From contig OZ024740.1 of NCBI GenBank assembly GCA_964016885.1, forward strand, positions 403,806,001-403,870,000: 64,000 bases of DNA. Direction: 5' to 3'. The stretch is from Eledone cirrhosa (Eukaryota). Shown here in pieces: positions 23,875 through 40,106 of this stretch (its first letter is position 1; each line of letters opens with the position of its first letter). Under the pieces are notes generated by a model. The model ran no database searches. It saw only the letters and a program-made list of their open reading frames with translations, and was not told the DNA's origin. A program made the position numbers and the translations under genes.

Positions 23875-25612
23875 GACTAGACTAACACATTTCCAATGTT
23901 GTTTAGCTTTTCCCCTTTCGTTTATCTCTTTAGTATTTCCACCCTAATTTTAATCGTGATAATGTTTTTCTATGTACCATTATCACATACACAGAAATTT
24001 CGCTTTCGAGGCGTTTTCGGGGGTAAACAGGAAAAATGTTTAAAACTTAAACTTTAAACCAAATAACATGAATAATACACCCAACACTATGTTTATGTTA
24101 CCGACTTAAAATAGCAAAATCCTTAAATACGCCGAAAACATAGTGTGGCAAAGTAATCATATATATGTATATATATATATATATATATATATATATATAT
24201 ATATATATATATATATATATATATATATATATATATATATATATATATATATATATATGTGTGTGTATGTGTGTGTATATATATATATATATATATATAT
24301 AACGAAGGAAATGTGGTAAGGAACCAGATGGACCATAACGCACCAAAGTACTCAATACTTAGGGTAGTAGAGTGGGTAATAGGAACGAGTAGGACCTCGA
24401 CGGCTGAGCTCAAGCCGTTTCGACGGCTAATTCTGGACTAAATGAACATTTTTATCCTGGTATTTGAATAGCCGAGCTTCTCAGGGGGTAATTCCATATA
24501 TGGTAAAAGTGATTGTCACAAGAATTGGTCAAAAGTTTGTTGTTGAGACATAATAATTCTATCATGGCAATTTGTGGAGGGAGGGGTAGCTGAACCTGCC
24601 AGTAGAAGAAAGAGGGAGAGGGGGTGGATGAAACCAAGTCGTGCGTTGATAGTGCCAACCACAGCTGGGCAGGAGGTCAAAGAAGATACTAGGGTGGGAG
24701 GGGGAGGAAGTCGAAACAATAAGTAAAACAATATGGGGTAAATATATAGAAAAAAACCGGGAGTGTTAAAAAACAATTAAATGTAAAAAAACAATTTCTG
24801 GTTACTATAACCTAAGGACAGCTATCAAGTCTATCACTGGTACTGCTAGACTAAAGAAAGGTTTACTAGGTGGGACGGAATTATAATGAGACCCTTTTAA
24901 GAGGTATAAGTAAACAACCGAATATATCTTACGGTGACGGGTCAACAAGTAGGGGGGGGGGGGCAAAATACTAAAGAAACTACCACGAAATAATAATTCA
25001 GAGTCCCGAGACCAGTACGAAATAAAGGTTTCTACCCAGGCACAAGGCCAGCAACCACCCGGTGCTAAAAAAAAATAAACTAATACGAAATAATAATTCA
25101 GAATCCCGAAAAAGAATACTAATACTATCTCTAAGGGTGCCGCCACGATACAAAAATTCTAGTGCAAACTACATAAATGCTCGTACGAAGTATATGTAAA
25201 ATTTGATACGGAAAATTAATTCAGAATCCCCCCCCCCCCTACAAAAAAATACTGATATACGAGAAATTAAAACAAAGATACCACTAAGAAATATGGAAAG
25301 CACGGAAAAGGGGCAGCCATCGGATAAGAAGGCAAGTATCCGGGTCTAACACATCTGCTATAAAAAGCGGAGTCGGCCAAATCTATCATAGAATAGGGGA
25401 AAGTGGTGGGGGTACTGAGGCTACAAAGGACGGAGGGGCTGCCTCGGGTGGACGAGAAAGTAAAAGGACGACGACAAAGAGAGAGGACTGGGGTGGAAGG
25501 ACAAGGGAGGGATGGGGGAAGAAAGAAATATAGAGGAAGCGATAAAAGGATATAAAAGAAGATCTACCTTTGCAAGCAGGGGTTACCCATTACAAAATCG
25601 GCAAGTGGGGTG

Positions 25613-26348
25613 TTATAGCCCTATCCCCCCCCCCCGGTCATTATGGGGTTTGAGGGCGAGGTAAGTCCTACGCAATCTGTGTTTACATGCAGTTACCAGT
25701 TCATCTTTCTTGTTTAGGAGTTGGTCCGTCGAAAACAGCATTTGTAAAGTTTCCTCCGAGCATAAATTGCACGGACGGCGTCCTCCCGTGTAAGAGTTGG
25801 CTCTGGACAGTAAGCTCCAAGTGAGATCATAGGTAATATTGTTATCCTTGAGGTCCCATATGTGGCCCGAAAGTGTCGTGGCGTGACGCCAGGCCGGGTT
25901 TCGGAAGGTATGTCTGTGTTGGTATAGCCGGGTCTTCAAGTCACATGCGGTTAATCCTATATAAGCTTTGTTGGAGGTGTCCGTCATCACGTTGCACTGG
26001 TAGATCACATTACGATCTCTGCATCTGTTGTCGAGGGGGCAAATGGATCCATCAAGACAGTTGCACCTCCTGGTCGGCCCTCCACTGCTATTTAGGTTAT
26101 TTCTTCCATAGGGGTTGAGTTTTTTGTTGTTAGAGGAGACGATGTTTTGTGTAAAGTTTGGTGTCGTGTTGTAGGAGAGTTTGATGGTATTTTTGTTAAT
26201 TATGTTGTGGTAGCGGTGTTGTAGTGGGAAGTGTTTTTCAATGAGCCTAAAAAAGATTTTCCCGATAGGAGTTGTCACCTCGACGTTGTGGGGAGGATTG
26301 AACTATGTTACGTTGCGTGAGCGGCGGTGTCGCCTGCTGGTTCTGCTT
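25613..26348 (-). pseudogene. PLE linker and GIY-YIG endonuclease (inverted arm)
   Basis: KHFP..H.Y..IINKNTIKLSY, CNCxxxxxCPLxxxC, VIYQC...YIGLT, C-terminal CxLC..E. Confidence 0.9.
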
Positions 26349-26349
26349 A

Positions 26350-27512
26350 TAGGATTATAGGATTATTCCTAATAGCCAAACTCACCGATATGTTTCCTGC
26401 ATTCGGCGGTGGATTGTACCGTGATGATGGGCTCCTTACTCTTAAAGGGTACAACCCCAGTAGTACAGATCTGGTCCGTAAACGATTTAAAATAACCCTA
26501 CAAACGTACCTGACGCGAGTAAACTTCCTGGACGATACGCTTGACCTCGATAACCATCTGTACTACCCATACAGGAAACCTAACGACAACCTGCACTACA
26601 TCCACCGCTGGTCAAACCATCCTAGAAACATCACCAATAGCCTGGTTAAAAACATCTCCCTCCGCATATCTCGTTTGTCAGCTAATGAGCAGATATTCGA
26701 GGAATATGCGCCTTATTACAACCAGGTCCTCAAGCGGAGTGGTTTCCGGGAGGGAATATCCTACTGTCCAGCTTCCATTAGCGGAACCAGCAGGCGACAC
26801 CGCCGCTCACGCAATGTAACATGGTTCAATCCTCCCCACAACGCCGAGGTGACAACTCCTATCGAGAAAATCTTCTTTAGGCTCATTGAAAAACACTTCC
26901 CACTACAACACCGCTACCACAACATAATTAACAAAAATACCATCAAACTCTCCTACAGCACGACACCAAACTTTACACAAATCATCGTCTCCTCTAACAA
27001 CAAAAAACTCAACCGCTATGGAAAAAATAAACTAAATAGCAGCGGAGGGCCGACCAGGAGGTGCAACTGTCCTGATGGATCCATTTGCTCCCTCGACAAC
27101 AGATGCAGAGATCGTAATGTGATCTACCAGTGCAACGTGAGGACAGGACACCTCCAACAAAGCTTATATAGGATTAACCGGATGTGACTTGAAAACCCGG
27201 CTATACCAACACAGACATACCTTCCGAAACCCGGCCCGGCGTCACGCCACGACACTTTCGGGCCACATCTGGGACCTCAAGGATAACAATATTAACTATG
27301 ATCTCACTTGGAGCTTACTGTCCAGAGCCAACTCTTACACGGAAGGACGCCGTCCGTGCAATTTATGCTCGGAGGAAACTTTACAAATGCTGTTTTCGAC
27401 GGACCAACTCCTAAACAAGAAAGATGAACTGGTAACTGCATGTAAACACAGATTGCGTAGGATTTACCTCGCCCTCAAACCCCATAATGAGCCGGGGGGA
27501 GGGGTAGACTAG
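26350..27512 (+). pseudogene. PLE RT C-terminal half and GIY-YIG, 5'-truncated, frameshifted near 27140
   Basis: GLYRDDGL, VNFLD, PYRKPND, SNHP, WFNPP, CNC; the following ORF has KTRLYQH...CNLCSEE. Confidence 0.92.
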
Positions 27513-28633
27513 GGCTATAACACCCCACTTGCCGATTTTGTAATGGGTAACCCTTGCTTGCAAAGGTAGATCTTCTTTTATATCCTTTTATCGCTTCCTC
27601 TATATTTCCTTCTTCCTCCCATCCCTCCCTAGTCCTTCCACCGCAGTCCTCTCTCTTTGTCGTCTTCCTTTTACGTTCTCGCCCACCCGAGTCAGCCCCT
27701 TGGTCCTTTGTAGCCTCAGTACCCCCACCACCTTCCCCTATTCTATGATAGATTTGGCCGACTCCGCTTTTTATAGCAGATGTGTTAGACCCGGATACTT
27801 GCCTTCTTATCCGATGGCTGCCCCTTTTCCGTGCTTTCCATATTTCTTAGTGGTATCTTTGCTTTAATTTCTCGTATATCAGTATTTTTTTTTGGGGGGT
27901 GGGGGGGGGGGATTCTGAATTAATTTTCTGTATCAAATTTTACATATACTTCGTACGAGCATTTATGTAGTTTGCACTAGAATTTTTGTATCGTGGCGGC
28001 ACCTTTAGAGATAATATTAGTATTCTTTTTCGGGATTCTCAATTATTATTTCGTATTAGTTTATTTTTTTTAGCACCGGGTGGTTGTTGGCCTTGTACGT
28101 GGGGTAGAAACCTTTATTTCGTACTGGTTTCGGGACTCTGAATTATTATTTCGTGGTAGTTTCTTTAGTAATTTGGCCCCCCACTTGTTGACCCGTCACC
28201 TTAAGATATATTCGGTTGTTTACTTATACCTCTTAAAAGGGTCTCATTATAATTCCGTCCCACCTAGTAAACCTTTCTTTAGTCTAGCAGTACCAGTGAG
28301 AGACTTGATAGCTGTCCTTAGGTTATAGCAACCAGAAATTGTTTTTTTACATTTAATTGTTTTTAACACTGCCGGTTTTTTTCTATATATTTACCCCATA
28401 TTGTTTTACTTATTGTTTCTACTTTCCCCCTAGTATCTTCTTTGTTCTCCTGCCCAGCTGTGGTTGGCACTATCAACGCACGACTTGGTTTCATCCAACC
28501 CCTCACCCTCTTTCTTCTACTGGCAGGTTCAGCTACCCCCTCCCTCCACAAATTGCCATGATAGAATTATTATGTCTCAACAACAAACTTTTGACCAATC
28601 CTTGTGACAATCACTTTTACCATATATGGAATT

Positions 28634-39605: not shown

Positions 39606-39773
39606 CTATATATATATATATTGTTATACTTTGAGAGGGTCATGTTGCCAATAAGAAACACACGCACCAGTTGCTTTCACTTCAATTTATTATAAATTAA
39701 AATTATAAATTTAGGAATTTATAAATTTCCAGTTGGTTGGTCGGTTCCACAACCAGATGATTGTTAATATATT

Positions 39774-39816
39774 GCCAAAGTGCTTTCGTCACACATTCTG
39801 TGACCTCTTCAGTGAC
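39774..39816 (-). ncRNA. Type I hammerhead (family A element 39620-39866)
   Basis: Minus strand: GTCA-CTGAAGA-G-GTCAC-AGAATGT-GTGAC-GAAA-GCA-CTT-TGGC. Confidence 0.72.
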
Positions 39817-39913
39817 TGGGGATTCTTTTCTTTGTTTTTGTGCCTCTCATTTGTTGTCCTACGCCATATATATATATGTGTATATATATATATATATATA
39901 TATATATATATAT

Positions 39914-40106
39914 AACGAAGGAAATGTGGTAAGGAACCAGGTGGACCATACGCACCAAAGTACTCAATACTTAGGGTAGTAGAGTGGGTAATAGGAACAA
40001 GTAAGACCCCGACGGCTGAGCTCAAGCCATTTCGACGGCTAATTCTGGACTGAATTAGCCGTCGAAACGGCTTGATCTCAGCCGTCGGGGTCTTACTTGT
40101 TCCTAT
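39914..40106. mobile_element. Miniature two-armed (hairpin) insertion of the 24.3-kb PLE family
   Basis: 39990-40045 is the reverse complement of 40052-40106; long arm ends TTCGTT-(AT)n, short arm ends TTCCTAT-(AT)n. Confidence 0.88.

Follow-up and report, generated by a model that had tools for sequence, protein, structure and literature searches.

Penelope-like element copies in the window

The DNA analysed here (the window) is a 64,000-nucleotide stretch of contig OZ024740.1 from the Eledone cirrhosa assembly GCA_964016885.1, and our subject is a Penelope-like element (PLE) family, four insertions of which lie between positions 24301 and 40106. Each consists of two oppositely oriented arms whose 3' ends point outward into (AT)n. 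Within the element, position 0 is the final base of the long end (...TTCGTT) and upstream positions are negative; L denotes the tailed (long) end at 0 and S the tail-less (short) end at -78.

The long arm of copy 1 (24301..26343, minus strand) runs from 0 to about -2090 and carries part of the GIY-YIG endonuclease, the 3' region and a hammerhead motif. The 78-nt tail lies within it (24301-24378, minus strand) and closes with ...TTCGTT, followed by (AT)n. The short arm (26355..28744, plus strand) covers -2549 to -78 and contains a broken C-terminal part of the reverse transcriptase (RT), a CxCx5C linker, the endonuclease and the 3' region, closing with ...TTCCTAT and then (AT)n. Between the arms lies an 11-nt junction filler (26344..26354), made up of 2 extra nt and a 9-nt copy of the adjoining short-arm start, and the short arm differs from the long one by 2.9% substitutions. 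Copy 2 (35950..36086), of an older subfamily, joins a long arm at 35950-36033 (minus strand, 0..-83) to a short arm at 36034-36086 (plus strand, -128..-78). In copy 3 (37983..38103) the short arm (37983-38005, minus strand, -78..-100) ends in TTCCCAT and is separated by one extra A from the long arm (38007-38103, plus strand, -96..0), the turn at -100/-96 lying close to the predicted hammerhead cut. Copy 4 (39914..40106) has its long arm at 39914-40051 (minus strand, 0..-138) and its short arm at 40052-40106 (plus strand, -132..-78), and is of the type commonest genome-wide, its turn falling at a wall close to -138. One further copy, the fifth, has a single arm at 19509..19564 (minus strand) and retains the tail end only (0..-55).

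All four insertions of one family with a common two-armed design were thus present as the earlier note had described them. The offset of ~78 nt that it gave between the two ends was measured as exactly 78 nt, and the short end, placed about 20 nt past the hammerhead site, lies exactly 20 nt beyond the predicted cut (28724/28725). Its list of copies was correct for the four two-armed insertions and overlooked the one-armed copy at 19509-19564.

Fixed ends and their pairing

Copies of the family were searched for in the 3.0 Gb genome, window included. An exact 35-mer from upstream of both ends gave 19,769 matches genome-wide, and the design is therefore neither chance nor local duplication. In the first 100 of these matches, which served as the end-point sample, 45 ends fell at 0, 48 at -78 and 3 at -75/-76, the remainder being 1 read-through and 3 copies with tail deletions. 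These 100 matches trace to 63 insertions with two arms, 9 loci with only one (7 L, 2 S) and a single unresolved case. Not one of the 63 combined L with L or S with S, the S end being broken off in one.

Pairing was then counted genome-wide with matched 13+13-nt anchors and a gap of 90-120 nt between them, which gave 10,503 L+S, 78 L+L and 78 S+S. One-of-each pairing thus reaches 98.5%, where independent choice of the ends predicts ~5,330 symmetric cases. Fifteen loci of each symmetric class were inspected: among the L+L loci 6 were true, 4 were read-through jump copies and 5 ended early or jumped, and among the S+S loci the tail followed an inserted (AT)n in 2 and 1 was not the element. The symmetric counts were confined to the 90-120 gap; further L+S matches were counted at gaps of 0-40 (960) and 41-89 (3,564). 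Across ~15,000 copies overall, the tail is almost always present on one arm and absent from the other.

The sequence beyond 0 in tandem copies reads ATCTAG..., that beyond -78 reads TACCC..., and 49 exact read-through copies were found. Beyond 0 follows the element's own 5' region, which makes both start sites internal, and from these continuations each end has TAT in common with the (AT)n flank. Such sharing would be expected if the 3' end of the target pairs with UAU on the RNA. Folding of the RNA around the two start sites gave no significant structure.

The earlier note had claimed fixed, asymmetric 3' end points with a variable internal junction. The end points hold genome-wide and are not broadly distributed, and the 74 short two-armed copies sampled display 56 junction types, which marks them as independent insertions and not duplicates of one ancestral insertion.

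Identity of the family

A unit of ~3.6 kb was built from the longer copies, with an open reading frame of ~740 aa beginning ~94 nt past 0. A single frame with RT and C-terminal GIY-YIG endonuclease is seen at loci L139 and L149, as frames of 684-710 aa with YRDDG and VIYQC..YIG. A search recovered 403 homologues, and a Pfam search with 3 proteins returned 0 families. Among the Hydra-clade motifs, RWR is found in this family (RWK in most relatives) and DKT is present; the CxCx5C linker is CNCPDGSIC, the endonuclease CxxC is CNLC and its CxH is CKH, and CCHH is absent. The target is (TA)n, as for the Hydra clade. Judged by these motifs against the available text of PMC8557442, and by comparison with Hydra sequences by eye, the four insertions represent a new PLE family of the Hydra clade, one with an unusually long tail. 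At 78 nt the tail lies outside the 30-40 bp PLE range, which is a typical published size and no strict criterion.

Partial tandems of the pseudo-long terminal repeat (pLTR) type, an inverted truncated copy and a tail are present at L137-L139, and the two-armed insertions are a real feature with a known PLE architecture. The tandem hammerhead monomers by which a non-LTR retrozyme is recognised were not found, the units being dispersed and inverted, and no multi-unit master array was seen among the 40 of 49 read-through loci examined at 10 kb.

Where the arms stop

A type I hammerhead is predicted by motif inspection at 28631..28729 (plus strand), with ACCCC, a CTGAGAA core, stem II, GAAA and a stem III with palindromic loop, the cut after GTC being predicted between 28724 and 28725. 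Its core and stems I-III were recognised by inspection over 133 arms, with a variable N7. An Rfam search (E<=5) gave no hammerhead among the best 150 of 158 matches listed, only microsatellite-driven miRNA noise. Some subfamilies have a U3-A8 core, and the most common of the long ones has a C3.A8 core; the motif rules and the U3-A8 variant are described in PMC4209133, as far as its accessible text goes.

Arm starts cluster at -132 to -142, with few beyond, at the site TTTAGTC. We take this site to resemble an initiator motif, and the wall near -138 is likely to be the transcript start, with the putative first base A(-138) at 28684, inside hammerhead loop II. The promoter of D. virilis Penelope has been located in the pLTR (PMC2377424, in the part available). 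Template-jump copies leave at ~-137, land at +80 to +835 and retain L+S pairing. Two other accounts of the wall were considered. A splice acceptor was dropped, as TTTAG itself is often included in the arms, and an RT stall is disfavoured, as the site lies in a loop and jump copies depart from it.

A second stopping point lies at -97, the position of the predicted hammerhead cut. In the 70 smallest insertions, drawn from the 960 of the 0-40 gap class, 38 of 140 arm ends fall at -97 (48 when five blunt CCCC/GGGG joins are counted) and 1 at -99 to -101; jump departures from -97 were seen at 5 loci. Both arms stop exactly at -97 in 18 of the 70, and genome-wide in ~247 copies against ~20 if the arms were independent, a ~12-fold excess that is a rough estimate, the middle size class resting on 30 loci. 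Such double -97 copies number ~118 in the subfamily with the intact U3-A8 core (128 matches, 4 of the first 50 ambiguous) and 38 in the mostly-C3.A8 subfamily (49 matches, 11 ambiguous), the two subfamilies being equally frequent (40 and 39 of 100 rows, by eye; p 2e-4). This ~3-fold excess of the intact core is somewhat inflated by its younger age. We infer that -97 may be an RNA end made by the ribozyme, a genomic hint of ribozyme cutting in vivo.

Do the two arms come from one template?

In 72 of the 74 short copies (2 with too little overlap were dropped), the subfamily haplotype was identical between the arms in 49 pairs, against 10.3+-2.8 after permutation (maximum 21 in 5,000). The arm divergence was compared with that of the family, as the earlier note had proposed, and the arms were found to be closer: in short copies the arm distance is 2.8% against 6.7%, and in long pairs 4.0% within against 10.0% between. 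Rare variants common to both arms numbered 2 and unshared ones 85, which makes gene conversion after insertion a weak explanation.

Arm lengths are coupled as well. In the 63 two-armed insertions both arms were short in 51, both extended beyond -150 in 10 and 2 were discordant (Fisher p 9e-10), so that where either arm passes -150 both do so in 10 of 12. At locus L273 an identical +120/-162 junction, found nowhere else in the genome, occurs in both arms, the L arm being one 282-nt round and the S arm more than one; this one locus suggests a circular or self-jumped RNA template. At L120:850-1570 the 5' region is passed three times in succession, twice joined at +115/-141 (a 257-nt unit), a single case that would follow from a circular template or from successive end-to-end jumps. 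Among short copies 14 of 72 carry the T(-101) haplotype, and among long arms 1 of 107; the short copies thus derive from a partly different source pool.

The choice between one template and two, which the earlier note had left to this comparison, leans to one RNA molecule on the haplotypes, the stopping points and L273, all read from genomic scars.

Proposed mechanism and alternatives

The model that fits best, to which we give a probability of roughly 0.65, is that a protein dimer nicks both strands, a single RNA is the template of two cDNAs begun at different sites, and the ends of these are then joined. On the precedent of the anole PLE in vitro, both strands of the (TA)n repeat would be nicked by the dimer, and the DNA ends so freed would each prime reverse transcription on the same RNA, one at 0 and the other at -78. 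The single RNA would be read twice through strand displacement. Most ~200-bp copies would be run-off products, the start sites lying near the RNA 5' end set by the -138 transcript start, and host end-joining repair would link the two cDNA ends at the centre. The earlier suggestion that priming occurs at two fixed points of the template and the products are then joined thus stands as the best-fitting model (10,503 L+S against 78 and 78, with fixed ends), and a programmed mode is supported over random truncation by ends that are fixed, base-exact and one of each.

Double priming on two RNAs supplied by one source locus, where the asymmetry of the dimer would assign one start site to each subunit, is an unlikely alternative. 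It accounts for the strict pairing and the subfamily agreement without strand displacement, and some long pairs are 5-10% different. However, neither the excess of insertions with both arms at -97 nor the unique L273 junction in both arms is readily explained by it.

Somewhat less likely again is single priming, in which the second arm is self-primed by fold-back of the cDNA or of an antisense RNA (Arkhipova 2013), the endonuclease then resolving the intermediate at -78 to leave a one-sided tail. One template and strict asymmetry follow naturally from such a route, inverted overlaps of 2-6 nt occur at some junctions, and it has been published for bdelloid PLEs with junction palindromes (PMC3846280, available text). 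Yet either arm may be the longer (S in 26 of the 74 short copies, L in 38, equal in 10), S exceeding L by kilobases at L138 (3.9 kb against 0.5 kb) and L139 (3.9 kb against 61 nt), and 51 of 74 junctions have an overlap of at most 1 nt or filler, including locally copied filler as in copy 1; these two features argue against fold-back self-priming, even if later deletions at palindrome centres might blur them. Moreover, the blunt GACCCC/GGGGTC joins (-97/-97) offer no loop for priming, and the end of an antisense template would not be set by a sense-strand ribozyme. Self-priming on an antisense template thus fits the data poorly, and we found no other published explanation for the inversion.

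We consider it very improbable that the short palindromes existed beforehand as a non-autonomous element and were copied whole, or that they arose as symmetric insertions that deletion later trimmed into (TA)n. The very many ~200-bp copies and the partly different source pool implied by the T(-101) skew would suit such origins. Against them, the 56 junction types among 74 copies include recurrent types in both reciprocal forms; trimming would not be expected to leave 98.5% one-sided, base-exact ends, and multi-kb copies obey the same rule. Palindromes in repeat-rich DNA are a known class of artefact, but an assembly or library fold-back origin is hardly credible here, the arms being ~3% different, the ends fixed and asymmetric, and 3 of 4 public runs, all of one sample, having contigs that contain joins corresponding to the -97 class (40010/40011 to 40087) but do not reach across the whole copy.

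Several points weigh against copying of one RNA by a dimer at both break ends. Of 73 sampled insertions, some 9 have a single arm; the pattern counts need exact matches, are biased to young copies and cover short insertions only; and (AT)n on both flanks masks any target-site duplication. Only 9 of 28 long pairs have the partner as the closest arm, some being mis-paired with inner repeats, and subfamily agreement alone would also be expected from two RNAs of one source gene. The commonest long subfamily, with its mismatched core, still has 38 double -97 copies, -97 adjoins the base of stem III, where RT pausing could occur, and folding of the 5' region is unremarkable (z -1.2). Transcript start, RNA ends and ribozyme cleavage are all deduced from traces left in the genome. 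Finally, in the accessible text of PMC11167929 the anole enzyme works in vitro without strand difference in start-site use and does not need ribozyme cleavage, the one-of-each rule lying outside that assay.

To the broader proposal we give even odds: that PLEs as a class integrate by programmed double target-primed reverse transcription, with a single RNA read twice by one dimer and without an element-made second strand, that the hammerhead cuts the RNA in vivo and sometimes gives circular templates, and that inversion and one-sided tail are the direct product. If true, this would be a distinct route of retroelement integration, in which a telomerase-related enzyme links a single RNA to the two ends of a break. 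The family supplies thousands of natural products, from which three quantitative rules emerge (one of each end, a shared template and shared stopping points), and the in vitro system already established for PLEs allows them to be tested. The population evidence for double priming on one RNA is unusually strong.

Other repeats in the window

A second Hydra-type element at 40493-43404 has the same design, with inverted arms at 40597-41042 and 42961-43406 that are 99.5% alike and RT remains at 40998-42747. It is a single copy; its right arm stops at (AT)n and its left arm extends ~107 nt more before (AT)n, possibly an even longer tail. A Hydra-type protein-like fragment of a third family adjoins (AT)n at 21358-21660 (minus strand). 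Large inverted repeats, 80-92% alike, lie at 10635-11480, 43526-44334, 44380-44688 and 15484-15576, in some of which (AT)n occupies the centre or an end; they had no similarity to the Hydra proteins compared. A dispersed repeat family of ~100-220 bp occupies 1421-12501 in at least 6 copies of both orientations, and a satellite array with a 50-bp unit (264 copies, 92% matches) fills 50882-64000.

Comparison with known systems

The origin of the tandem and inverted structures of PLEs, and of the tail, is an open question in the available text of Craig 2021. The canonical insertion unit has partial tandem pLTRs, an adjoining inverted 5'-truncated copy and an optional tail at one end (PMC8557442 Fig. 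2; PMC3846280), and in the accessible parts of both sources the tail is ascribed to endonuclease resolution and the inversion to self-priming. The present family shares with it the head-to-head inverted arm, the one-end tail, partial tandems (L137-L139) and a microsatellite target. In contrast, the tail is 78 nt here and 30-40 there, and what is "optional" there is here a near-absolute one-of-each rule (98.5%). The inverted-arm design pointed out in the earlier note is therefore real and not new, as Craig 2021 (Fig. 2) and Frangieh 2024, in their available parts, precede it. Between them these two published sources have the design and the start sites; the architecture is ordinary among PLEs, and the novelty lies in the numbers.

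For Poseidon, a PLE of Anolis carolinensis, both strands were cut and extended in vitro at an AT-rich target, with a predicted dimer and two internal RT start sites bounding the tail (Frangieh 2024, PMC11167929, available text). Two internal start sites and an AT-rich target are common to both systems, double-strand extension and a dimer being here only deduced. The two belong to different clades, and the predicted cut is where arm ends accumulate here, whereas for Poseidon no RNA ends were found at the ribozyme cut. The accessible text of PMC11167929 makes no connection between the two start sites and inverted insertions, and no report linking two start sites to head-to-head insertions was found in a literature search that largely excluded subscription papers.

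In LINE-1 twin priming, both target ends prime on one RNA and the product is inverted; each cDNA copies a different part of the RNA, and the second starts at no fixed site. In the present family, in contrast, both cDNAs would copy the same part of the RNA from two fixed sites.

With the endonuclease-positive PLEs of the Hydra clade (Craig 2021, available text) the family shares RWR/RWK, DKT, CxCx5C, CxxC, CxH, lack of CCHH, a hammerhead and the (TA)n target. It differs in its unit of ~3.6 kb, described members being generally <3 kb, and in a core variant, U3-A8 / C3.A8, whose loop II is long. Minimal hammerheads are known from metazoan PLEs as well as non-LTR retrozymes, and in Schistosoma motif pairs occur on opposite strands 100-700 bp apart (PMC4209133; bioRxiv 10.64898/2026.07.22.740005; both in their available text). 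The type I motif, the palindromic loop III and the U3-A8 variant are common to these and the present family. Unlike retrozymes, however, the short copies here are dispersed two-armed scars and not tandem arrays, and an appearance of rolling copying is confined to the single loci L120 and L273.

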